The notes beneath the pieces were generated by a model that saw nothing but the letters and a program-made list of their open reading frames with translations, was not told the DNA's origin and ran no database searches. Positions 8,620-42,409 of a stretch of 64,000 bases of DNA are shown piece after piece. Every line of letters begins with the position of its first letter. The stretch's first letter is position 1. Source of the DNA: an uncultured Pelagibacteraceae bacterium (GTDB lineage Bacteria > Pseudomonadota > Alphaproteobacteria > Pelagibacterales > Pelagibacteraceae); contig CACMAX010000001.1 in assembly GCA_902611845.1 (NCBI GenBank), positions 209,445 to 273,444 on the forward strand, in the 5' to 3' direction. Both the position numbers and the translations under genes were made by a program.

Positions 8620-9948
8620 ATGTTTAAAAATATATTAATAACAATCTCTGCAATAGCTTTTGTTTTTAATTCAATTGCATTTGCAGATATCAAATTCTGG
8701 ACGACAGAAACTCAACCAGCAAGAATGGCTAAACAAGAAGAGATGGCTAAAGCTTTTGAAGCTAAAACTGGAATTGGAGTTGAAGTTATTCCGATTGATG
8801 AAAAAGATTTAGGAACAAGAGCTACTGCAGCAGCAGCAGCGGGAGATCTTCCTGATGTAATTTATCATACACTTCAATATGTATTACCATGGGCTGAAGC
8901 TGGAATTTTAGATGTTGATGCAAATAATGATGTCGTTAATTCACTTGGAAAGAAAACTTTTGCTCCTGGTGCTTTAAAGATGGCTAAAAAAGGTGGCAAA
9001 ATTGCTGCTGTGCCAGTAGATGGCTGGACTCAAATGGTCGTTTACAGAAAAGATTTATTTGCAGCTGCTGGTTTAGAACCACCAACGACTTATGCAAATA
9101 TAGAGAAAGCAATTGATGCTTTATCTAGCAATGAGATGTTTGGATTTGTTGCGGCAACTAAAACTGACGAAAACTTTATGAGTCAGGTTTTGGAACATGT
9201 TTTTCTTGCAAATGGCGTAAACATAGTAAAAAAAGGTGGAACAAAAAAACAAGGAAGAGCTTTAAAAAATTCTTTACAGTTTTATAAAAAATTAGCTAAG
9301 GCTAGCCCTCCAGGAGAACTTTATTGGAAACAATCAAGAGAACTTTATTTCGCTGGTAAAACTCCAATGATAATATGGTCACCGTTTATTATGGATGAAT
9401 TAGCTGGTTTAAGAGACTCAGCTCCACCAACAATTAATAGTGATCCTACATCACCTGAATTGGCATCTAAAACTGGTTTTATAACTAATTTTAGTGGACC
9501 AAATAATGTAAAAGGTGCAGCTTGGGCAGATGTTAGATACTTTGGTATAACTGCAGATGCAGATACTGATGAAGCTAAGCAGTTTATTCTTTATTCAATG
9601 GATGAAGGATACACAAGCACTTTATCTATAGCACCAGAAGGTAAGTTCCCTGTAAGAAGAGGTAATGCAAGTGATCCAAATGCATTTACAACAGCTTGGA
9701 GTAAACTGCCTGTTGGAGTTGATAGAAAAGCTCCTTTAACAGATCTATATTCTGCAGATGTAATAAATAATATTGTTGCTGGTTTAGATACTGCTAACAG
9801 ATGGGGAGTAAAAGAAGGTGAACTATCTAGAGCATCTAAAATTATTAACAATAAGTTTATAAATAGAATCACTAGACAATATATTGACGATCAATTGACG
9901 CTAGATGAAGCAGTAACTGAAATTAACACTGTGCTAGCTAGCTTCTAA
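8620..9948 (+). CDS. Carbohydrate ABC transporter solute-binding protein (family 1 type)
   Basis: Signal peptide (SIAFA-D), FEAKTGIGVEV, GDLPDVI, VPVDGWTQMVVYRKDLF, and SD GAGGGG. Confidence 0.9.
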   Translation: MFKNILITISAIAFVFNSIAFADIKFWTTETQPARMAKQEEMAKAFEAKTGIGVEVIPIDEKDLGTRATAAAAAGDLPDVIYHTLQYVLPWAEAGILDVDANNDVVNSLGKKTFAPGALKMAKKGGKIAAVPVDGWTQMVVYRKDLFAAAGLEPPTTYANIEKAIDALSSNEMFGFVAATKTDENFMSQVLEHVFLANGVNIVKKGGTKKQGRALKNSLQFYKKLAKASPPGELYWKQSRELYFAGKTPMIIWSPFIMDELAGLRDSAPPTINSDPTSPELASKTGFITNFSGPNNVKGAAWADVRYFGITADADTDEAKQFILYSMDEGYTSTLSIAPEGKFPVRRGNASDPNAFTTAWSKLPVGVDRKAPLTDLYSADVINNIVAGLDTANRWGVKEGELSRASKIINNKFINRITRQYIDDQLTLDEAVTEINTVLASF

Positions 9949-9962
9949 TAATTTAAATTATT

Positions 9963-9998
9963 AAAAAAGCGGGTAATATTAATTATCCGCTTTTTTTT
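9963..9998 (+). terminator. Hairpin + T run between the SBP and permease genes
   Basis: AAAAAAGCGGGTAAT-ATTA-ATTATCCGCTTTTTTTT, ending immediately at the ATG at 9999. Confidence 0.75.
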
Positions 9999-11258
9999 AT
10001 GAGTTCAAAACTTGCAAAAATTGAAAAAAGAACAGCTTATTTATTAATATTACCATCGGTTCTTTTAGTATTTTCTATAATTTTATTTCCAATATTTTCC
10101 AACATTTGGATCAGCTTTAAAAATGTAGAGCTTAAAGATTTGAGAATTCCTGAACCAAGAGCAAAAAAATTAGTAAAATCAATTAAGGATAATCCAAATC
10201 AAATAAAAGTAATTTATAAATTAAGAAATAGTTCTCTTACACAAGAAATTACTAATGTAAAATTTAAAGATAAATATCCAGATGATATCGAACCAATAGA
10301 TTTAGACAATAAATGTCAATTTAAATCAAATTTACTTAAATGCGAACTAGGTAATTGGCCAAAAAAATATCGAGAAAATTTAGAAATAGTTTTTCAAAAT
10401 ACTAATAATCAAGAAATTTCTAAGAAGGAACTAAAATCCTTTAAACCTAAACTCTCAGGTAAGTCACAAAATATATTATTAACCTATGAATTTACGTTAA
10501 ATAATTTCAAAAAAGTAATCAAAGATAAAGCTTTCATAGATCTATTATCAACAACTTTTTATTATACTTTTTTTGGAACCATAGGTGCAATAGTTTTTGG
10601 AATTTTGGCAGCACAAATGGTAAATCAAAAATTTTTTGGAAGAACATTTATGAGAAGTGTTCTTTTATTTCCTTATGTTGCACCAGTTGTTGCTCTTGCT
10701 TATACCTGGGAACTTTTACTTGATCCAACAAGTGGAACTTTAAATAATTTATTAATTAATTATCAAATTATTGATGGACCAATAAATTTACTAGGACAAA
10801 AATATGTAACTTTAAATATACTTGGTTTTGATTTTAAGTTGAGGCTAGCATTAACAACAGTAATTATTTTTGAAATTTGGAGATATTTTCCTTTAGCATT
10901 TTTATTTATTCTTGCTCGTCTTCAAGCAGTTCCAAAAGAACTTTATGAAGCAGCTGATGTTGATGGCGCAAATCCTATTCAAAAATTTCTTAACATAACT
11001 TTACCCCAGATATTAGCAGTGATTTCAATTCTATTTATGATTAGATTTATTTGGAATTTTAATAAATTTGAAGACATCTTCTTACTCACTGGCGGAGCAT
11101 CAGGAACAAGAACATTACCAATCAATGTATATCAACAAGGTTTTTCAATCGGGGATATTGGTATGGGTTCTGCAGTTTCTATTGTAATTGTAGTATTTCT
11201 GTTAATTTTTATGTTTATCTATTTTAAACTTTTAGGAAAAAGAGCGGATGAAAATTAA
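9999..11258 (+). CDS. Carbohydrate ABC permease (MalF-like) with a large soluble insert
   Basis: EAA loop LYEAADVDGA, motifs RSVLLFPY and WNFNKFEDIFLLTGG, and a ~110-aa hydrophilic insert after TM1. Confidence 0.9.
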   Translation: MSSKLAKIEKRTAYLLILPSVLLVFSIILFPIFSNIWISFKNVELKDLRIPEPRAKKLVKSIKDNPNQIKVIYKLRNSSLTQEITNVKFKDKYPDDIEPIDLDNKCQFKSNLLKCELGNWPKKYRENLEIVFQNTNNQEISKKELKSFKPKLSGKSQNILLTYEFTLNNFKKVIKDKAFIDLLSTTFYYTFFGTIGAIVFGILAAQMVNQKFFGRTFMRSVLLFPYVAPVVALAYTWELLLDPTSGTLNNLLINYQIIDGPINLLGQKYVTLNILGFDFKLRLALTTVIIFEIWRYFPLAFLFILARLQAVPKELYEAADVDGANPIQKFLNITLPQILAVISILFMIRFIWNFNKFEDIFLLTGGASGTRTLPINVYQQGFSIGDIGMGSAVSIVIVVFLLIFMFIYFKLLGKRADEN

Positions 11259-31471: not shown

Positions 31472-32827
31472 TCACTTACTGACTACTTCTCTTGTATTTG
31501 CGTTGTAAGATTCTGTAAATGGAATATCAACTACAACTGCATCAACTGGTTCCCCAGGTTTATCAGAATATTTTTCTGGTAGATGGACTTTAAATTTCGA
31601 TCCAACTTTACCTCTTGGAAAACCATTTGCATTTAGCGTGCCATCAAATGGAACATATCCCATAGCAATATTTTTCCCCTTTTCTGGGTGATACCATGGA
31701 GAAGTTATAAATCCTACAGGCTCACTGCCGTTTTCTGAAATTAACCAAAAATCTGGAGCATATTCTTCAATAGGTTTTCCTCCTAATTCAAGTCCAACTA
31801 ATTGAAGTTTGTAAGGTTTATGACCTGCTTTTAAATCAGCTTTCATTTTCTCGAGAGCTTTTTTACCAATGTAATCTGCTTTTTTGTTCCATTCACCTTT
31901 ACCAGATAAAGAAACTTGATATCCAAGATTACATTGAAATGGATTATGCTCATGATCCATATCTTGTCCCCATGAAAGAATTCCAGCTTGTATCCTTCTA
32001 TGGTGTGCAGGAGCAATTACCATTAAGTTATGTTTTTTACCTGCTTCAAGAACAGCATTCCACATATCTTCGGCATATAAAGTTGCTTCTCTTAAATATA
32101 TTTCAAATCCAGACTCGCCTGAAAAACCTGTTTGAGAAATTATACAACTTCTTCCACCAACTTTTGCAGAAGCCAATCCATAAAAAGGCATGTTATCAAT
32201 ATCAACTTCACTTCCACAAAGATCTTTCATCAAAGCTTTTGCTTTAGGACCTTGAATTTGTACAGGACAAGCATCTATTTCATTAATTTGAACATTAAAC
32301 CTTTCATCTGCATTTACTCCTTGCAGATATAATCCTATATCACTATCTGATAAACTAAACCAAAATTCATCTTTAGAAATTCTTAAAAGAATAGGATCAT
32401 TTAATACTCCTCCATAAGAATTACACAAAATTACATATCTTCCTCTCATTGGAGAAATTTTTGTAGCATCTCTTGTAATTACATAATCAACAAATTTTTC
32501 TGCATCTGGTCCTTTAACTTGTATTTGTCTTTCAACTGCAACATTCCACATTGTTACATGGTTTTTAATTGCTTCGTACTCAACCATTGCACCACCATCT
32601 TCAGGTTTAACATAACCTCTTGGATGATAAATTCTGTTATAAACAGTTGCTCTCCAACATCCTGCTTTCATAGATAAATGCCAGTATGGAGATTTCCTTA
32701 CTCTTGTTGATATTAGCATCTCAACTTTAGTAGGTCCGCTTTGTCTCAAATTATATGGTACTTTTCTATCAGACTGATCTACTGATGTTGTATGTCTTAG
32801 TTTACTATAGTCAAATTCATTAGACAT
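31472..32827 (-). CDS. GcvT-family THF-dependent aminomethyltransferase/demethylase (DmdA/LigM-like, substrate unknown)
   Basis: TRVRKSPY, MWNVAVERQ, NDPILLR, QTGFSGESGFEIY, RRIQAGILSWGQD, NPFQCNLG. Confidence 0.88.
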   Translation of the reverse strand: MSNEFDYSKLRHTTSVDQSDRKVPYNLRQSGPTKVEMLISTRVRKSPYWHLSMKAGCWRATVYNRIYHPRGYVKPEDGGAMVEYEAIKNHVTMWNVAVERQIQVKGPDAEKFVDYVITRDATKISPMRGRYVILCNSYGGVLNDPILLRISKDEFWFSLSDSDIGLYLQGVNADERFNVQINEIDACPVQIQGPKAKALMKDLCGSEVDIDNMPFYGLASAKVGGRSCIISQTGFSGESGFEIYLREATLYAEDMWNAVLEAGKKHNLMVIAPAHHRRIQAGILSWGQDMDHEHNPFQCNLGYQVSLSGKGEWNKKADYIGKKALEKMKADLKAGHKPYKLQLVGLELGGKPIEEYAPDFWLISENGSEPVGFITSPWYHPEKGKNIAMGYVPFDGTLNANGFPRGKVGSKFKVHLPEKYSDKPGEPVDAVVVDIPFTESYNANTREVVSK

Positions 32828-33548
32828 AGTTATTCTCCTTCAACCACTTGTTAGTTTCCTTCAAGCCGCCGAATGTATAAATGTGGAAATAATCAGTATG
32901 CGATTTAACTTTCCCAATTAAATCATTAGGGTCTTTAGGTTTCAATAAATCCAACGCCTTACTAAAATTAGATTTAAGAAAGTTAATGGAATTTTTTGCC
33001 CCTACAATATTAGCAAATTTAATTAAGCTAGATATTTTCATTGGCCCAGTTATTCCAACATGAACTGGTATTGTTTGTTTTGAGATAAAATCTATAATAG
33101 GCTGAGTATCCATTAGCCACTGTGTAACTATATAATCAGCATAAGGCTTTTTATCTATCATAGCTTTTTCTAAATCAGAGTCGGATATATCAGGACTCCC
33201 CTCGGGATGTCCAGCAATTCCAATCTTGATACCATCAAAAAACCCTGTCTCAAGCATTTGATATGAGCTATCAAATTTTCCGATTGGGTCACGACTTCCG
33301 CCTATCACCAAGACCTGCTTAACACCCAAATCTTTACATCTAGAAACATAATCTTTCAGCTGATTTTCATTATTTATTGACCTTGCAGGGAAGTGAGGAA
33401 CTGGATTAAATCCCTCTTTAACTAACTCCCCAGACTGTTGAGCTGTCTCTTTATAATCACCTCCAGGTAGCATTGTAACATAAACATCTTTTACCTTTGG
33501 CAACGTGCTTAAATCAGTTTTAGGACCTATTTCTAAAGAAAAATTCAT
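32820..33548 (-). CDS. metF: Short methylenetetrahydrofolate reductase-family flavoprotein
   Basis: PVPHFPAR, LVIGG, GIAGHPEG, IVTQ, HIYTFGG; 242 aa; overlaps the AMT start. Confidence 0.82.
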   Translation of the reverse strand: MNFSLEIGPKTDLSTLPKVKDVYVTMLPGGDYKETAQQSGELVKEGFNPVPHFPARSINNENQLKDYVSRCKDLGVKQVLVIGGSRDPIGKFDSSYQMLETGFFDGIKIGIAGHPEGSPDISDSDLEKAMIDKKPYADYIVTQWLMDTQPIIDFISKQTIPVHVGITGPMKISSLIKFANIVGAKNSINFLKSNFSKALDLLKPKDPNDLIGKVKSHTDYFHIYTFGGLKETNKWLKENNYV

Positions 33549-36473: not shown

Positions 36474-37649
36474 ATGTCAGAAATTTACAATATTATAGAT
36501 AAACAAAAGTTAGATATTGTATCTAAACCAATTAGTGAAGCTCATGGTTTACCAAATGAATGCTACATCAGTAAAGAATATACTTTAATTGAAAGAAAAA
36601 AATTATTTGAAGATAAGTGGATCGTCATTGGAGTTGGAAGTTCTATTCCAGATGAAGGTGATGTGAAACCAATTGATTTACTTGGAATACCCTTACTTAT
36701 TGTTAGAACAAAAAATAAAGAAATAAAAGTTTTTCATAATATTTGTAGTCATAGAGGAGTTAAATTAGTTAAAGAAGCTGGCAAAATTAGAAATGTTATG
36801 AGGTGCTCATATCATTCATGGTCATATGACTTAGAAGGAAAATTAGTAGCTACACCTCATATAGGAGGCATGAATATTCATCAAACACCTGAATTTGATA
36901 AATCAAAAAGTAATTTAAAAGAGATAAGATCATATATTTGGTTAGATCTAATTATGATTAACATTAACAACAATGAAATTTCATTTGAGGATTATATCAG
37001 TCCTTTAAGTCAAAGATGGGAAAAATTTTGGCCCTTAAAAGATAGAGAATTAATTTATCATGCAAATGATTATGGTTATTTTAAATTAGATGCAAAATGT
37101 AATTGGAAATTTGCAATTGAAAATTATTGTGAAAGCTATCATTTGCCTTGGGTTCATCCAGGATTAAATTCTTATTCAAAGTTAGAAGATCACTATCATA
37201 TTCAAGGTCTTCCAAATCGTTTCGCCGGACAAGGAACAGTGGTCTACAATCCAAGGTTTGAAGGAAAAGAAAAATTTCCTTGCTTTCCTAACTGGCCAAA
37301 AGATAAGGAAAATATAGCTGAGTATGTAGCACTATTTCCAAATGTTATGTTAGGAATTCACAAAGATCATTATTATGCTTATTGGTTAGAGCCAATCAAT
37401 CATGAGCTTACAGTAGAACATATGGAAATTTATTATGTTGGAGATGAAGCGGCAACTTCAACAAAGTATAAAACTTTAAGACAAAAAAATCACAAACAAT
37501 GGGAAGACATTCAAAAAGAAGATGTAGATATAATTCAAAGTATGCAAATAGGCAGAAACTCACCAGCTTATAATGGTGGTAATTTTTCTCCAAAGATGGA
37601 CAATCCAACACATCATTTTCATAAGTGGGTTGCTGGTAATTTAATTTAA
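36474..37649 (+). CDS. Rieske non-heme iron oxygenase alpha subunit (choline monooxygenase/betaine demethylase-like)
   Basis: Rieske motifs CSHRG and CSYHSW; mononuclear site NWKFAIENYCESYHLPWVHP and EDVD. Confidence 0.9.
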   Translation: MSEIYNIIDKQKLDIVSKPISEAHGLPNECYISKEYTLIERKKLFEDKWIVIGVGSSIPDEGDVKPIDLLGIPLLIVRTKNKEIKVFHNICSHRGVKLVKEAGKIRNVMRCSYHSWSYDLEGKLVATPHIGGMNIHQTPEFDKSKSNLKEIRSYIWLDLIMININNNEISFEDYISPLSQRWEKFWPLKDRELIYHANDYGYFKLDAKCNWKFAIENYCESYHLPWVHPGLNSYSKLEDHYHIQGLPNRFAGQGTVVYNPRFEGKEKFPCFPNWPKDKENIAEYVALFPNVMLGIHKDHYYAYWLEPINHELTVEHMEIYYVGDEAATSTKYKTLRQKNHKQWEDIQKEDVDIIQSMQIGRNSPAYNGGNFSPKMDNPTHHFHKWVAGNLI

Positions 37650-38446: not shown

Positions 38447-39220
38447 GTGACTGTAAAAATAAATAAATTATCACCTGGTGTTAAAAGAGTTTTAATTAAT
38501 GATCCAAAAACTTATAATTCCTTATCATACAATACTCTTTCGTCTTTATTAAAAGCATTCAAAAAATTAGATAACGACAAAGAGACTAGAGTTATTATTT
38601 TAGAAGGGGCTGGTAAAGGATTTAGTGCAGGCCATAACTTAAAAGAGGTAAGAGGTATAAAAAATAGATCTAATCATTTAAAACTATTTAAACTTTGTTC
38701 AAAACTAATGATGCAAATAGTAGAAGGAAACAAACCAGTAATAGCAAAAGTTCATGGTGCTGCTTATGCAGCTGGTTGTCAATTAGCAGCTAGTTGTGAT
38801 CTTGCATATAGTACAAACTCAGCAACATTTGCTACACCTGGAGTAAAAATTGGATTATTTTGTAGTACACCAATGGTAGCTGTCAGTCGAAAAATTAGTA
38901 GAAAAAGAATGATGGAAATGCTCTTAACTGGAGATCCAATTACTGCAAAATATGCAAAGGAAATAGGTTTGATAAATGATCATTACAGTCCAAAAACTTT
39001 GAATAAAAAAGTTTTAGATATTGCAAAAAAAATATCTTCAAAATCAAATTTAACCATCAAAATAGGTAAAAAAGGTTTTTATAAACAATTAGAAATGCCA
39101 TTAGGTAAAGCTTACGATTACACAAGTAAGATGATGACACTTAATATGTCATCTTATGATGCTAAAGAAGGTATTAGTGCATTTATCGAAAAAAGAAATC
39201 CAAGTTGGAAAAACAAATAA
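38447..39220 (+). CDS. Enoyl-CoA hydratase/isomerase family protein
   Basis: FSAGHNLKE, AKVHGAAYAAGCQLAASCD, TPGVKIGLFC. Confidence 0.92.
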   Translation: MTVKINKLSPGVKRVLINDPKTYNSLSYNTLSSLLKAFKKLDNDKETRVIILEGAGKGFSAGHNLKEVRGIKNRSNHLKLFKLCSKLMMQIVEGNKPVIAKVHGAAYAAGCQLAASCDLAYSTNSATFATPGVKIGLFCSTPMVAVSRKISRKRMMEMLLTGDPITAKYAKEIGLINDHYSPKTLNKKVLDIAKKISSKSNLTIKIGKKGFYKQLEMPLGKAYDYTSKMMTLNMSSYDAKEGISAFIEKRNPSWKNK

Positions 39221-39280
39221 CCATTAAGTTGAAGTCACTTAAAAAAAAGATTAAGTTGTAATCAAAGGAGAAAATCAATC

Positions 39281-40633
39281 ATGGATGGATGCTGTGGCCC
39301 TGGATATGCTAGTCCTGCAGAAGCAATAAAAGCACCAAAAGAAAAGCTTTTATATACAATAGCTATCTACACAGGGACGGGAATACAAAAACCAGACTAT
39401 TTAGCAACAGTTGATGTTGATCCTCAAAGCCCAACTTATTCTAAAGTAATTCATAGACTTGAAATGCCAGGTATTGGTGATGAATTGCATCACATGGGAT
39501 GGAATGCATGCTCTTCTTGTCATGGCGACTCAAATATGAGCAGAAAATATTTGTTAGTTCCAGGTGTTAGATCAAATAACATTTATGTAGTTGATACTGC
39601 ATCTGATCCTAGGGCTCCTAAAATACATAAAGTAGTTGATGGATCTGAAATAAAGAAAAAAACTAATTTATCAGGACCGCATACAGTTCATTGCCTAGGT
39701 TCTGAAATTATCATTTCTTTTCTTGGAGATGCTCGAGGAGAAGCTCCAGGAGGATATTTACATTTAAATAAAGATTTTGAAATTGTAGGTAGATGGGAAA
39801 ATTCAATGGGAGACATACCTTTTAGTTATGACTTCTGGTATCAACCAAGACACAATGTAATGGTTAGTTCTGAATGGGCTGCTCCTAATACATTCATGCC
39901 TGGATTTGATTTAGAGGAAGTTGGTCATTTAAAATATGGAAGAAGACTTCATGTTTGGGATTTTAAAAAAAAAGAGCCAGTTCAAACGATGTATTTAGGT
40001 GAAGACGGTTTAATACCTTTAGAAGTAAAATTTATGCATAATCCTGATAGTAGTCATGGATTTTGTGGTGCTGCGCTAAGTGCAAATGTAATTCATTTTT
40101 GGAAATCAAAAGAAGGTAAATGGGAATGGGAAAAAATAATTGATGTTGAAAATGAACCACATCCTGATTGGCCAATTCCTGTACCTGGAGTTATGTCGGC
40201 AATATTGGTTTCTATGGATGATAAATATCTCTATATAAATAATTGGCTTCATGGAGATATGAGACAATACGATATTTCAGATCCGCACAATCCTAAATTA
40301 ACTGGTCAAGTTTGGATGGGTGGATTGTTAGGAAAGGCTCCAGAAGTAAATGGTGTTAAAATTGCTGGTGGTCCTCAAATGTATCAATTATCTTTAGATG
40401 GTAAAAGGATGTATGTAACAACATCATTATTTTCTACTTGGGATAATCAATTTTATCCTGAAATAAGAAAACAGGGGGGAGCAATGATTATGATTGATTG
40501 TGATGTTGAAAATGGTGGGATGAAAATTAATAAAGATTTTATTGTTGATTTTGGTAAAGAGCCAAATGGACCTAGTAGGTGCCATGAAAGTAGATATCCA
40601 GGTGGAGATTGCACAAGCGACATCTGGCTATGA
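39281..40633 (+). CDS. SBP56/SELENBP1-type protein, candidate cytoplasmic methanethiol oxidase
   Basis: CCGPGYASP, DELHHMGWNACSS, HTVHC, YDFWYQPRHNVM, PLEVKF, GGPQMYQLSLDGKR, RYPGGDCTSDIWL; no signal peptide. Confidence 0.9.
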   Translation: MDGCCGPGYASPAEAIKAPKEKLLYTIAIYTGTGIQKPDYLATVDVDPQSPTYSKVIHRLEMPGIGDELHHMGWNACSSCHGDSNMSRKYLLVPGVRSNNIYVVDTASDPRAPKIHKVVDGSEIKKKTNLSGPHTVHCLGSEIIISFLGDARGEAPGGYLHLNKDFEIVGRWENSMGDIPFSYDFWYQPRHNVMVSSEWAAPNTFMPGFDLEEVGHLKYGRRLHVWDFKKKEPVQTMYLGEDGLIPLEVKFMHNPDSSHGFCGAALSANVIHFWKSKEGKWEWEKIIDVENEPHPDWPIPVPGVMSAILVSMDDKYLYINNWLHGDMRQYDISDPHNPKLTGQVWMGGLLGKAPEVNGVKIAGGPQMYQLSLDGKRMYVTTSLFSTWDNQFYPEIRKQGGAMIMIDCDVENGGMKINKDFIVDFGKEPNGPSRCHESRYPGGDCTSDIWL

Positions 40634-40995
40634 CAAAGATTACAATCTCAAACAGAAATAACAGTGCATTTGAAGTCAGTGGAAAAAAACCTTTATTAAA
40701 CGAATTAAGAGATCAAGGTGTCGATCTTCCATACGGATGTCAGTATGGAGGATGTATTACATGTGCAGCTAAACTAATAAATGGGGAAGTAGATCAACGT
40801 TCTCAAGTTGCTTTAAATAACAGACAAATAAATGATGGATATATTATTTTATGTGTTGCTAAAGCAAAAACAGATTGCACAATTGAGATAGGAGTTGAAA
40901 GTCATGATAAATTATACCGAAATCCTTTTCTTGATCCTTTAGAGCCACACGAATTAAAAGCAGATATTGCAAGTAAAAAGGATGAAAAAAAATAA
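40630..40995 (+). CDS. Plant-type 2Fe-2S ferredoxin
   Basis: LPYGCQYGGCITC...LCVA; ATGA overlap with the SBP56 stop. Confidence 0.9.
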   Translation: MTKITISNRNNSAFEVSGKKPLLNELRDQGVDLPYGCQYGGCITCAAKLINGEVDQRSQVALNNRQINDGYIILCVAKAKTDCTIEIGVESHDKLYRNPFLDPLEPHELKADIASKKDEKK

Positions 40996-40997
40996 AA

Positions 40998-41447
40998 ATG
41001 AACCATAACGAACCTTATAGCGCTGAATATTTAAAAGATATTTTAAGCTCAGTTAAGACAATTGCTATGGTTGGTGCTAGCCCTGATAAAACTAAATTTA
41101 GTTATGGTGTATTAAGAGTTTTGCACGAAACTGGCTATGATATGATACCTGTAAACCCTAAACCAGGTATAAAGGAAATTAGAAATTTAAAAGTTTATCC
41201 AAATTTATCTGCTATCGATAGACCCGTTGATATGGTTGAAGTATTTAGAAAATCAGAGGATCTTTATGGAATTGCTGAAGAGGCAATATCAATTGGAGCA
41301 AAGGTTTTGTGGGGACAAATCGGTGTAATTAATCATGATGCAGCAAAAATTGCTGAAGATGCAGGTTTAAAAGTAGTTATGAATAGATGTCCAAAAATTG
41401 AACTCTTCAGACCATTTTGGAAACCGCGACTAGATCTTAAAATTTAA
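40998..41447 (+). CDS. CoA-binding domain protein (YccU-like), copy 1
   Basis: TIAMVGASP, IPVNP, VDMVEVFR, LWGQIG, VVMNRCPKIE. Confidence 0.88.
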   Translation: MNHNEPYSAEYLKDILSSVKTIAMVGASPDKTKFSYGVLRVLHETGYDMIPVNPKPGIKEIRNLKVYPNLSAIDRPVDMVEVFRKSEDLYGIAEEAISIGAKVLWGQIGVINHDAAKIAEDAGLKVVMNRCPKIELFRPFWKPRLDLKI

Positions 41448-41455
41448 ATCAAATT

Positions 41456-41881
41456 ATGGATACAACACTTTTAGATGAAAAAATAAAAGAACTATATTTA
41501 AGTTATAGGACGATAGCAATTGTTGGAGCAAGCCCAGACTCAAAAAAAACTTCCAATATAATAATGAAATATTTAAGAAATACAGGTTACAAAGTTTTTC
41601 CCGTTAATCCAGTAACAGATAATAAAATTATACATGGTGAACCAGTTTATAAAAAACTAACGGATATTAAAGATCATGTTGGAATTGTTAATGTTTTTAG
41701 ACCTAGTGAGGAGGCTGAGGAAATAGCAAAACAAACAATAGAAATTGGTGCAAATGTATTATGGTTGCAATTAGGAATTCACAACGAAAATGCAGCTAAA
41801 TTAGTCTCTCAAAATAAAATTTATTATATCTCTAATAAATGTATTAAAAACGAATACGATAGATTATTCAAAACTATATAA
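41456..41881 (+). CDS. CoA-binding domain protein (YccU-like), copy 2
   Basis: TIAIVGASP, FPVNP, IVNVFRP, LWLQLGI, NKCIKNE. Confidence 0.88.
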   Translation: MDTTLLDEKIKELYLSYRTIAIVGASPDSKKTSNIIMKYLRNTGYKVFPVNPVTDNKIIHGEPVYKKLTDIKDHVGIVNVFRPSEEAEEIAKQTIEIGANVLWLQLGIHNENAAKLVSQNKIYYISNKCIKNEYDRLFKTI

Positions 41882-41947: not shown

Positions 41948-42409
41948 ATGAAATCCAAAATTTTATTTTTTTTAATTACATTTTTTTATTTTAATTCTTC
42001 ATTTGCCGATGTTTTAAAACCAAGTGTGAATATAGATCCAAAACAAGTTGTTTTAATTCAATTAAAGGCATTAATGAAAAATGACAGTCCATATAAAGAT
42101 AGAGGGATTGAGCAAACATGGGAATTTGCACATCCAAATAATCAAAGGATGACAGGTCCATTAGATAGATTTAAAAGAATGTTAAAAGGGGCTTCATACT
42201 CGATGCTGATTGATCACAAAGAAAATACAGTAACTGAAATTTACAAATCAAGTTCAATGGCAACTTATGAAGTTGTTGTCTTGGATAAGGACAAACAATA
42301 TTTTAAATTTAAATGGAAAGTTGAAAAGAATAATAAAGAAGGCAATCTTTTAGATTGCTGGCTAACAACAGCGGTTTCACAACCAATACCAATGGGATCA
42401 TCAATATAA
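41948..42409 (+). CDS. Exported protein, DUF4864-like
   Basis: Signal peptide (SSFA-D), WEFAHP, GPLDRFKRM, CWLT. Confidence 0.6.
   Translation: MKSKILFFLITFFYFNSSFADVLKPSVNIDPKQVVLIQLKALMKNDSPYKDRGIEQTWEFAHPNNQRMTGPLDRFKRMLKGASYSMLIDHKENTVTEIYKSSSMATYEVVVLDKDKQYFKFKWKVEKNNKEGNLLDCWLTTAVSQPIPMGSSI

Follow-up and report, generated by a model that had tools for sequence, protein, structure and literature searches.

The window analyzed in this study is a stretch of 64,000 nucleotides from the genome of an uncultured Pelagibacteraceae bacterium, and it contains a gene for a protein of the SBP56 family followed by a ferredoxin gene. This locus raises two questions: which type of SBP56 protein is encoded here, and whether this protein works alone or together with the products of its neighboring genes. 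The questions matter for methanethiol, which DMSP demethylation releases as its principal volatile product; this demethylation is among the largest oceanic organic sulfur fluxes, and SAR11 bacteria are the most abundant organisms that carry it out. An earlier interpretation, made from the letters of the DNA alone (hereafter, the sequence-only reading), had proposed a cytoplasmic methanethiol oxidase of the SELENBP1 type coupled to a ferredoxin.

The SBP56 gene is located on the forward strand at positions 39281..40633 and encodes a protein of 450 aa (50.4 kDa). The match to the Pfam family SBP56 (PF05694) covers its full length, with residues 4-450 aligned to positions 2-453 of the 453-position profile (692.6 bits, E 2.9e-208, cut-off 34). 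Because the alignment runs from end to end with this E-value, the assignment is no chance match. Only one solved structure was matched, PDB 2ECE from Sulfolobus tokodaii (E 1e-127, residues 9-448). The gene is preceded by a Shine-Dalgarno-like AAAGGAG on the same strand (39264..39270, 10 nt 5' of the ATG), which was read from the sequence. Between the upstream stop and position 39281 the frame has no other start codon, which leaves no room for a 5' extension; by inspection of this start and of the hydrophilic N-terminus (MDGCCGPGYASPAEAIK), no signal peptide was found on the protein.

The motifs found in the protein are CCGPGY (residues 4-9), DELHH (67-71), GWNACSSC (73-80), HTVHC (134-138), YDFWYQPRHNVM (183-194), PLEVKF (246-251), and GGDCT (441-445), the last lying inside RYPGGDCTSDIW (438-449). 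Six residues are putative copper ligands (H70, H71, H134, H137, D184, and E248), and all six are unvarying in 149 SELENBP1-type relatives. The conserved cysteines are C4/C5, C77-x2-C80, C138, and C444; Cys444 is variable among relatives both with and without a ferredoxin partner.

GWNACS, HTVHC, and GGDCT, all present in the window protein, are the motifs by which cluster-1 methanethiol oxidases were defined (PMC10936201). In the residue numbering and proposed copper site of the cluster-1 enzyme RdMTO (PMC13603461), the six ligands correspond to His75/76, His139/142, Asp189, and Glu253 with an offset of 5, and C444 corresponds to Cys448. The MtoX equivalog model of NCBIfam (NF052453) gave only 161.9 bits for the window protein, far under the cut-off of 650, and 759.7 bits for a control, a genuine Skermanella MtoX whose gene adjoins an SCO gene. 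With a genuine MtoX-linked SCO protein as the query, no tblastn match was found within the whole window at E<=1. Neither SCO nor MauG was found among the annotated neighbors from 31.5 to 48.8 kb, the absence of MauG being judged from these annotations only, with no MauG seed sequence used. In a FastTree phylogeny of 97 sequences, which did not include RdMTO itself, the window protein is located inside a marine alphaproteobacterial clade among the roseobacter copies, and the outgroups to this clade are MtoX and an SBP56 clade of ~40% identity. Between the window protein and the roseobacter copies, identity is 85-90%, with 90.2% for the copy on a Phaeobacter inhibens plasmid. The ORF is assigned here to the SELENBP1-type cluster-1 SBP56 proteins and not to the MtoX orthologues, and its product is predicted to be a cytoplasmic, copper-dependent oxidase of methanethiol or other alkyl thiols.

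What the sequence-only reading had observed for this protein is borne out, and its interpretation is borne out in part. Its ORF positions, the gene's own Shine-Dalgarno sequence, and the overlap with the ferredoxin gene are correct; all the SELENBP1-type motifs that it quoted were found, as was every His, Asp, and Glu residue proposed as a copper ligand for SELENBP1 and RdMTO. The lack of a signal peptide and of mauG and sco neighbors agrees with the inspections described above, and the distinction from MtoX, for which a phylogeny had been suggested, is upheld by both the model scores and the tree.

Cluster 1, as defined for Rhodobacteraceae, already contains two characterized methanethiol oxidases, RdMTO from Roseobacter denitrificans OCh114 (UniProt Q166Z5) and RlMTO from Ruegeria lacuscaerulensis, with biochemistry dated 2024 and 2026 (PMC10936201; PMC13603461). 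RdMTO was found to be a Cu-dependent methanethiol oxidase in vitro (PMC13603461; PMC10936201). The products of the cluster-1 enzymes are disputed, being H2S and H2O2 in one study (PMC13603461) and sulfane sulfur without H2O2 in the other (PMC10936201). The window protein resembles both enzymes in its length of ~450 aa, the lack of a leader, the SBP56 subfamily, the motifs, the His/His/His/His/Asp/Glu set, and the C-terminal Cys. These orthologues were missed by the sequence-only reading, although its SELENBP1 type, copper ligands, and ferredoxin linkage all stand. Unlike the reading of the locus proposed below, the published work on RdMTO and RlMTO treats the enzyme as a single protein, and activity is known for these orthologues only. 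No mention of a ferredoxin, a CoA-binding protein, or an operon was found in the two papers (PMC10936201, PMC13603461), and literature searches returned no link between SBP56/SELENBP1 and ferredoxin or CoA-binding proteins. What is new here is not the enzyme family but the conserved partnership and the fusion evidence, which are in none of the searched papers.

In humans, SELENBP1 oxidizes methanethiol in the cytosol and depends on Cu for this reaction (Pol et al., 2018; PMC10362175), and the window protein shares with it the fold family, the proposed copper ligands, and the cytosolic location. RdMTO is ~53% identical to SELENBP1, a figure that belongs to RdMTO and not to the window protein (PMC13603461). 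MtoX, known from Hyphomicrobium sp. VS and Ruegeria pomeroyi, oxidizes methanethiol in the periplasm and is accompanied by the accessory genes SCO and MauG (PMC5739008). It has the Pfam family SBP56 and H70, H71, H134, D184, and E248 in common with the window protein, and copper dependence and the overall reaction are alike in MtoX and the SELENBP1 type. Unlike the window protein, MtoX has a signal peptide and SCO/MauG neighbors, and it is ~26% identical to the SELENBP1 type. The selenium-binding protein of S. tokodaii (2ECE) is an archaeal member of the same beta-propeller family with the same motifs. A third SBP56 clade (e.g., Marinovum algicola pMaD9) is ~40% identical, leaderless, and DMSP-linked and has the same ligand residues; unlike the window gene, the M. 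algicola gene adjoins dmdA, an acyl-CoA synthetase gene, and 'DMSP breakdown' genes, and it has no ferredoxin neighbor. For eukaryotic SELENBP1, we know of no ferredoxin or CoA-binding partner; the window enzyme's genes include both.

The ferredoxin gene (40630..40995, forward strand) encodes a plant-type [2Fe-2S] ferredoxin of 121 aa (Pfam Fer2, PF00111; 50 bits, cut-off 21), and its ATG overlaps the TGA of the SBP56 gene as ATGA. The cluster ligands C37-x4-C42-x2-C45-x29-C75 have the plant-type spacing; the score with the photosynthetic-type model TIGR02008 (fdx_plant) is 74.4 bits, under the cut-off of 81.15. The nearest PDB entry is 3p63 (E 9e-20), and a weak match to the NCBIfam family YfaE was also found (35 bits). 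In alignments, the ferredoxins that are partners of SBP56 have the signature GVESHDxLYRNPF, followed in the window copy by the tail LDPLEPHELKADIA. Only 25 representatives were found at E<=1e-30 among 1.84 billion proteins, and the subfamily is therefore small. Thus, the partner ferredoxins are classed here as a separate small subfamily with this signature. A separate homologue search with the ferredoxin gave only near-identical SAR11 sequences. Two longer SBP56 homologues were considered as SBP56-ferredoxin fusions and rejected: the one of 604 aa (P0004) is an over-extended ORF, and the one of 563 aa (P0077) looks like the product of a chimeric contig.

A ferredoxin gene was found directly 3' of the SBP56 gene in 78 of the 78 related genome loci, a count that overstates the universality of the pairing since the 80 genome loci were the closest relatives out of 596 matches. 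Among more divergent metagenome loci, it was found at this position in 56 of 71. The genome loci belong to SAR11, SAR116, roseobacters, Rhizobiaceae, Hyphomicrobiales, Geminicoccaceae, Granulosicoccaceae, and Spiribacter. The SBP56-ferredoxin pair was also found in a Chloroflexota genome, in the actinobacterium Marmoricola, and in the haloarchaea Haloferax and Natronococcus. The module is also present at Roseobacter and Phaeobacter loci other than that of RdMTO, which was outside the comparison. The ferredoxin is missing in approximately one-fifth of the divergent loci, in one whole subclade (L128-L136), and on two of the four haloarchaeal plasmids. In the SBP56 tree, the pairing is restricted to the SELENBP1-type clade, and MtoX and the outgroups of 40% identity have SCO or DmdA contexts in place of the ferredoxin.

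This distribution bears on the possibility that the adjacency to SBP56 is incidental in SAR11 and that the ferredoxin serves a Rieske oxygenase encoded three genes upstream (36474-37649). The oxygenase gene is in the same gene string and on the same strand, with neither a reductase nor a ferredoxin of its own nearby. However, the 39 non-SAR11 genome loci all have the ferredoxin after SBP56, as do 56 of the metagenome loci, and no Rieske gene is adjacent in any of these; several SAR11 loci carry the SBP56-ferredoxin pair without a Rieske gene, and the start/stop overlap is with the SBP56 gene. A role for the ferredoxin in the upstream Rieske oxygenase was rejected on synteny, and we regard it as highly improbable.

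The loci that lack the ferredoxin, together with the accessory genes of MtoX, are relevant to a second possibility, namely that the ferredoxin is a maturation or maintenance factor only, a role in maturation having been suggested by the sequence-only reading. Its task would be the reduction of Cu(II) during loading, or of an active site that has become over-oxidised or thiol-blocked, and it would have no part in turnover. YfaE, which re-activates class I ribonucleotide reductase, provides an analogy for such a factor, as do the SCO and MauG proteins of MtoX. Some lineages manage without the ferredoxin, the enzyme by itself shows activity in vitro when copper is supplied, and each SBP56 clade has its own accessory gene, that of MtoX being the copper chaperone SCO. 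The weak YfaE match of the ferredoxin also fits, and a reported enzyme-Cys-S-S-CH3 adduct would need resolving (PMC10936201). Nevertheless, the ATGA coupling and the near-universal adjacency suggest roughly 1:1 production of the two proteins, which occasional repair does not need; the fusion of the ferredoxin to a CoA-binding domain is left unexplained; and no copper chaperone was found in any locus. A purely maturational role appears, on balance, somewhat unlikely.

Alternatively, the ferredoxin could be the electron donor in a catalytic cycle of the monooxygenase type, CH3SH + O2 + 2e- + 2H+ -> HCHO + H2S + H2O, and the H2O2 of the in vitro assays would then stem from uncoupling, as a side product. 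The closest relatives of the ferredoxin are low-potential plant-type and cyanobacterial ferredoxins, which suits this role. To our knowledge, SAR11 bacteria have no catalase; if so, a cytoplasmic source of H2O2 would be costly, and this too favors an electron donor. The ferredoxin core, on the other hand, is near neutral (pI 6.2), unlike classical donor ferredoxins, and a search of ~170 loci for an FNR-type ferredoxin reductase, with the reductase portion of a protein in which ferredoxin and reductase are fused as the query, found none. The biochemical reports point both ways: one laboratory saw no H2O2 from RdMTO and RlMTO (PMC10936201), but the other measured it in stoichiometric amounts (PMC13603461). 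We consider a donor role of this kind unlikely.

The third conserved member of the module is CoA_binding_2 protein 1 (40998..41447, forward strand; 149 aa; Pfam PF13380, 126.6 bits), and it is followed by a tandem paralogue, CoA_binding_2 protein 2 (41456..41881, forward strand; 141 aa; PF13380, 115.8 bits). The cut-off of this Pfam family, which is of the YccU / PH1109 / TT1466 type, is 22.8 bits. The PDB matches of protein 1 include 2duw (E 2e-34) and PH1109 (2d59, E 2e-22), and binding of CoA by this protein is suggested by homology. A CoA_binding_2 gene was found after the SBP56-ferredoxin pair in all 75 evaluable genome loci. The two window proteins are 43% identical to each other, and full-identity copies of protein 2 were found only in loci L001-L018; judging from these loci, protein 2 is specific to the SAR11 subclade of the window. 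Natural fusions of Fer2 with CoA_binding_2 were found in at least 47 protein clusters (57-88% identity), and 3 of the 3 fusions checked for context are encoded immediately 3' of an SBP56 gene. Because the two are often fused, the CoA-binding protein probably works physically with the ferredoxin. Additionally, C262, C407, and C434 of SBP56 are invariant solely among members of the clade with a CoA-binding protein; among the residues examined in the ~150 relatives, none tracks the presence or absence of the ferredoxin.

On the Phaeobacter plasmid, IclR is followed by SBP56-Fdx-CoAb-rhodanese-persulfide dioxygenase-ECH-acyl-CoA synthetase-DmdA-like, with scores of 367 bits for the persulfide dioxygenase (Blh dioxygenase half) and 377 bits for the DmdA-like protein. 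The Chloroflexota cluster includes an MBL-fold protein and a rhodanese. In total, a rhodanese was found in 13 of 36 non-SAR11 loci and a persulfide dioxygenase in 6 of 36; in the SAR11 loci, neither was found (0/37). Such contexts raise the possibility that the ferredoxin and the CoA-binding protein accept the output of the enzyme. Electrons would pass to the ferredoxin, the enzyme acting as a dehydrogenase, and/or sulfur would leave as a CoA persulfide and then go to sulfide or to the rhodanese and persulfide dioxygenase. The position of these two genes directly downstream in Phaeobacter and Chloroflexota is in line with this, as are the Fer2-CoA_binding_2 fusions, the three cysteines of the CoA-binding-protein clade, and sulfane sulfur as a reported product. 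The absence of a rhodanese and a persulfide dioxygenase from the SAR11 loci is not; furthermore, a low-potential ferredoxin is ill-suited as an acceptor for thiol-to-aldehyde oxidation, and the binding of CoA is deduced by homology alone. The likelihood of an acceptor role is judged to be low.

The gene upstream of SBP56 encodes an enoyl-CoA hydratase (crotonase) of the ECHDC3 / PRK08139 type (38447..39220, forward strand, 60 nt 5' of the SBP56 gene; Pfam ECH_1, 181 bits; NCBIfam PRK08139, 337.5 bits with a cut-off of 313). Among solved structures, it matches 3myb and human ECHDC3 (2vx2, E 6e-62) best. AcuH (5xzd) was matched only at E 1.6e-28, and DmdD is absent from the 49 structure matches at E<=1e-20. 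The idea that the crotonase is the missing MTA-CoA hydratase (DmdD/AcuH) of DMSP demethylation in SAR11 was rejected as a claim of orthology, the crotonase being of the ECHDC3 type; activity on MTA-CoA is possible. The crotonase gene was found upstream of SBP56 in 39 of 40 SAR11 loci, and an orthologue (PRK08139, 387 bits) is located downstream in 14 of 39 non-SAR11 loci. With regard to the module as a whole, the sequence-only reading had named conservation of the ferredoxin linkage among the tests of its proposal, and the linkage is strongly conserved in the genome and the metagenome loci; it named the ferredoxin partner correctly and missed the downstream CoA_binding_2 proteins and the upstream crotonase.

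The module is transcribed in seawater. Contigs from four seawater metatranscriptomes bridge the junctions ECH-SBP56, SBP56-Fdx, Fdx-CoAb1, and CoAb1-CoAb2, including those between 39220 and 39281 and between 41447 and 41456, and one RNA contig spans 40478-40769 with 0 mismatches; these contigs carry no strand information, and DNA carry-over is possible. A scan for promoters and terminators in this AT-rich DNA gave 32 promoter-like sites, with 34.5 expected.

The explanation that we prefer, and consider probable, is that a cytoplasmic SELENBP1-type thiol oxidase, orthologous to RdMTO, is co-expressed with a dedicated ferredoxin, one or two CoA-binding proteins, and a crotonase, and that the ferredoxin and the CoA-binding protein may form its redox and sulfur-handling accessory. 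From methanethiol, and probably from further short alkyl thiols, the oxidase would form formaldehyde together with reduced sulfur (H2S and/or sulfane sulfur), the methanethiol in SAR11 coming mainly from DMSP demethylation and methionine breakdown. It would be co-transcribed and translationally coupled with the [2Fe-2S] ferredoxin, with the crotonase gene before it and the CoA-binding genes after it. The ferredoxin may be the old core partner, common to the archaea, and the CoA-binding protein a gain of one large clade. In this accessory, the ferredoxin, together with the CoA-binding protein where present, may deliver single electrons to the oxidase or to its sulfur adduct. Such electrons would maintain an active copper/cysteine site or free the enzyme of a bound persulfide or mixed disulfide, CoA-SH possibly serving as the thiol carrier. 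In the cell, the oxidase would then give other products than it does by itself in vitro. It is plausible, as the sequence-only reading had proposed, that the formaldehyde enters the THF pathway and that the sulfide supplies a sulfur-auxotrophic cell.

Three observations count against the proposed role of the partners. Recombinant RdMTO is active in vitro with copper alone (PMC13603461), and the partners are therefore not strictly required for turnover. The ferredoxin is missing in some loci, and no examined SBP56 residue tracks it. Finally, no ferredoxin reductase that could act as a source or sink of electrons was found in the ~170 loci.

A further-reaching version, which we offer tentatively, is that the private ferredoxin, joined or fused in one large clade to a CoA-carrying protein, acts in each turnover by delivering or withdrawing electrons and by handing over the sulfur as a CoA-linked persulfide, so that the products are water and a carried persulfide or sulfide rather than free H2O2 and H2S. 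Equally tentatively, this would apply to SAR11, SAR116, and roseobacters, which have the methanethiol oxidase that is most widespread in the surface ocean, and to the related enzymes of Chloroflexota, Actinobacteria, and haloarchaea. If true, it would explain why two laboratories obtained different products from the same lone enzyme.

The two papers with conflicting products both assayed the enzyme alone, and the conserved partners lead to a testable hypothesis that the physiological system is multi-component. The partners may set the products and the output of H2O2 and may link the oxidase to CoA-thioester (DMSP-type) catabolism. For SAR11, the locus would provide an expressed cytoplasmic route, predicted from the encoded proteins, by which methanethiol is turned into formaldehyde and reduced sulfur. 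The range of the partnership extends from bacteria of the sea to salt-loving archaea. Humans, too, oxidize methanethiol with an enzyme of the SELENBP1 type, and a multi-component system, if confirmed, would be a reason to look for a corresponding partner of human SELENBP1.

The SBP56 gene, predicted to encode a methanethiol oxidase of the SELENBP1 type, lies at window positions 39281-40633 (+ strand, 450 aa) and is followed by a ferredoxin gene at 40630-40995 (+ strand, 121 aa). The window has a G+C content of about 30% and matches contigs from single-cell genomes of Pelagibacteraceae (SAR11) at 99-100% identity. As claimed in the sequence-only reading, the two genes overlap, the ferredoxin ATG lying on the SBP56 TGA as ATGA, and the SBP56 gene has its own Shine-Dalgarno sequence, AAAGGAG, 10 nt ahead of the ATG. 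The SBP56 protein matches the Pfam SBP56 family end to end (692.6 bits) and contains all the SELENBP1-type motifs quoted in that reading; among solved structures, its sole relative is 2ECE, a selenium-binding protein of Sulfolobus (E 1e-127). The second gene encodes a Fer2-domain ferredoxin with ligands C37, C42, C45, and C75 in plant-type spacing. Its nearest kin are cyanobacterial and plant ferredoxins, and it scores slightly below the TIGR02008 cut-off.

Against the NCBIfam equivalog model for periplasmic MtoX, the SBP56 protein reaches just 162 bits, short of the cut-off of 650; the MtoX of a Skermanella plasmid, followed by an SCO gene, served as positive control (760 bits). Two features said to separate it from MtoX were found: position 39281 is the earliest start codon downstream of the preceding stop, leaving no room for a signal peptide, and no SCO-like sequence is present in the entire window. 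The protein is predicted to be cytoplasmic. The three cysteine motifs defining the "cluster 1" Rhodobacteraceae methanethiol oxidases, RdMTO of Roseobacter denitrificans and RlMTO of Ruegeria lacuscaerulensis (PMC10936201), are present. The proposed copper site is also intact: H70, H71, H134, H137, D184, E248, and C444 match, at a constant offset, residues with a proposed role in copper binding and catalysis in RdMTO and human SELENBP1 (PMC13603461). RdMTO and SELENBP1 share about 53% identity (PMC13603461), with just 26% for MtoX (PMC5739008), and the roseobacter copies share 85-90% identity with the window protein. Judged by these motifs, intact ligand residues, and identities, the protein belongs to the SELENBP1 type, which makes it a SAR11 representative of a kind of enzyme characterized before. 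Copper-dependent degradation of methanethiol in vitro is on record for its orthologues (PMC13603461); the products were H2S, H2O2, and HCHO in one laboratory (PMC13603461) and sulfane sulfur without H2O2 in another (PMC10936201). A protein annotated as methanethiol oxidase of the sea spider Nymphon striatum (P0079) shares 77% identity with the SAR11 protein, far above the 53% given for the human-bacterial comparison, and is therefore probably a bacterial sequence inside an animal assembly.

The enzyme itself is already known. Marker-gene surveys imply that it occurs in SAR11, a point on which no discussion was found in the literature searched, and the open-access SBP56/SELENBP1 papers searched mention no ferredoxin, no CoA-binding protein, and no operon.

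The sequence-only reading had made its proposal depend on a conserved ferredoxin linkage, and the linkage proved to be conserved. By tblastn and profile searches of the best 80 of 596 genome hits, the ferredoxin gene is immediately 3' of SBP56 in all 78 evaluable loci, and a CoA_binding_2 gene follows the ferredoxin in 75 of 75. These loci come from 41 SAR11 species genomes as well as SAR116, roseobacters, Rhizobiaceae, Hyphomicrobiales, Geminicoccaceae, Granulosicoccaceae, and Spiribacter. Because they represent close relatives, metagenome contigs were surveyed with an actinobacterial SBP56 homologue as query; here the ferredoxin is directly downstream in 56 of 71 evaluable loci and a CoA-binding gene is found in 10 of 61. 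The SBP56-Fer2 pair is also found in Marmoricola, Haloferax mediterranei, and Natronococcus occultus, and a Chloroflexota genome has the order SBP56-CoAb-Fer2. No pair was found in the examined loci of Natronorubrum, Natrinema, Rubrobacter, and one further large genome.

In a tree of 97 SBP56 sequences, ferredoxin pairing extends throughout the SELENBP1-type clade apart from a small number of subclades that lack the ferredoxin. The CoA-binding gene is first seen at the root of a single large clade comprising the Chloroflexota sequence and all marine Proteobacteria, within which SAR11 is monophyletic and sister to SAR116. The MtoX outgroup is accompanied by SCO, and a 40%-identity outgroup clade lies within a dmdA/acyl-CoA-synthetase "DMSP breakdown" cluster. 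Gene order and phylogeny together mark the ferredoxin as a dedicated, evolutionarily old putative partner of SBP56. Its assignment to the Rieske oxygenase encoded three genes upstream (36474-37649) is contradicted by SBP56-ferredoxin synteny in taxa without the Rieske gene.

The third, roughly 40%-identical clade is common on plasmids of Sinorhizobium, Ensifer, Rhizobium, and Azospirillum. On Marinovum algicola pMaD9 (L089, 729-7371), it lies without a ferredoxin amid DmdA, acyl-CoA synthetase, and "DMSP breakdown" annotations. Only the clade with the CoA-binding partner keeps residues C262, C407, and C434 of the window protein invariant (88-91 of 91); outside it they vary (3-21 of 42), a pattern that may just mirror shared ancestry.

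The ferredoxins paired with SBP56 make up a small subfamily, with only 25 representatives at E<=1e-30 among 1.84 billion proteins and the signature GVESHDxLYRNPF behind the cluster-binding core. One representative is a Fer2-CoA_binding_2 fusion, and a search with it revealed at least 47 fusion clusters at 90% identity (P0252, P0394-P0438; 243-286 aa, mutual identity 57-88%) from JGI, ENA, NCBI, and Logan assemblies, some with hundreds of members. Since the fusion is directly 3' of the SBP56 gene in 3 of 3 contigs (L174:6001-6834, L175:6001-6837, L176:6001-6861), the two proteins, physically tied in the fusions, are predicted to form one functional unit belonging to SBP56. In the free-standing ferredoxin of the proteobacterial clade, a conserved tail, LDPLEPHELKADIA (window 40900-40995, residues 91-121), may be a docking peptide; it is missing in clades without the CoA-binding protein and replaced by a linker in the fusions. 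The near-neutral pI of the ferredoxin core (6.2), compared with acidic photosynthetic ferredoxins, is in keeping with a private docking partner. Downstream of the L174 fusion lie OsmC and a Pyr_redox_3 flavoprotein, the latter a possible reductase. Another protein, P0258 (432 aa), combines two Fer2 domains from the ferredoxin subfamily with an FAD/NAD-binding reductase in a single fused chain.

Upstream of SBP56, an enoyl-CoA hydratase gene is immediately adjacent in 39 of 40 SAR11 loci. In the window, this crotonase (38447-39220, + strand) is of the ECHDC3/PRK08139 type rather than DmdD or AcuH. It is the bacterial counterpart of human ECHDC3, for which no substrate was identified in the literature searched; the SELENBP1-type and ECHDC3-type families are gene neighbors in many bacteria. 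In non-SAR11 taxa, a crotonase of the same type lies downstream in 14 of 39 loci, together with a divergent IclR regulator (26/38), a rhodanese (13/36), an MBL-fold protein (6/36), an acyl-CoA synthetase (10/34), and a DmdA-like aminomethyltransferase (12/32). The full string is found on Phaeobacter inhibens pP30_b (L086), where IclR is divided from SBP56-ferredoxin-CoA-binding-rhodanese-MBL-crotonase-acyl-CoA synthetase-GcvT-like. The MBL protein encoded there scores 367 bits against the dioxygenase half of the bifunctional sulfur transferase/dioxygenase Blh, and the GcvT-like protein is nearest to DMSP demethylase (377 bits, cut-off 410). The separate rhodanese and MBL-fold protein (9309-10598), directly 3' of the SBP56-ferredoxin-CoA-binding genes, correspond to the two halves of Blh. 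By their predicted functions, the pP30_b and other non-SAR11 neighbors tie the oxidase to persulfide handling and a CoA-thioester pathway resembling DMSP/MMPA demethylation.

No rhodanese (0/37), dioxygenase (0/37), or IclR (0/36) gene was found in the SAR11 loci. In their place, the SAR11 subclade of the window has a second CoA-binding paralogue (41456-41881, + strand), 43% identical to the first (40998-41447, + strand). The gene at 41948-42409 encodes a DUF4864 protein whose N-terminus, MKSKILFFLITFFYFNSSFA, is clearly signal-like; it comes after the CoA-binding genes in almost every SAR11 locus and in no other taxon. At 31472-33548 (- strand), a 451-aa GcvT-family protein is nearest to DMSP demethylase, well under the cut-off (239 vs. 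410 bits), and its gene overlaps that of a 242-aa protein without Pfam or NCBIfam match.

The module is transcribed in the sea. Contigs of four seawater metatranscriptomes run along the whole gene stretch and span the crotonase-SBP56, SBP56-ferredoxin, ferredoxin-CoAb1, and CoAb1-CoAb2 junctions, one SBP56-ferredoxin contig (40478-40769) with 0 mismatches. As these contigs carry no strand information and DNA carry-over is possible, they are consistent with one transcript, short of proof.

Three roles can be considered for the ferredoxin, and they could not be separated because the enzyme works in vitro by itself, the ferredoxin is missing from some lineages, and about 170 loci encode no ferredoxin reductase. 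Service as a maintenance factor of the oxidase is the least doubtful of them; electron donation at each turnover is unlikely, and a function as acceptor and sulfur relay is equally improbable. In SAR11, methanethiol from DMSP demethylation or methionine breakdown would be oxidized by the window enzyme to formaldehyde and reduced sulfur, and the ferredoxin and CoA-binding partners would alter the working of the enzyme inside the cell.
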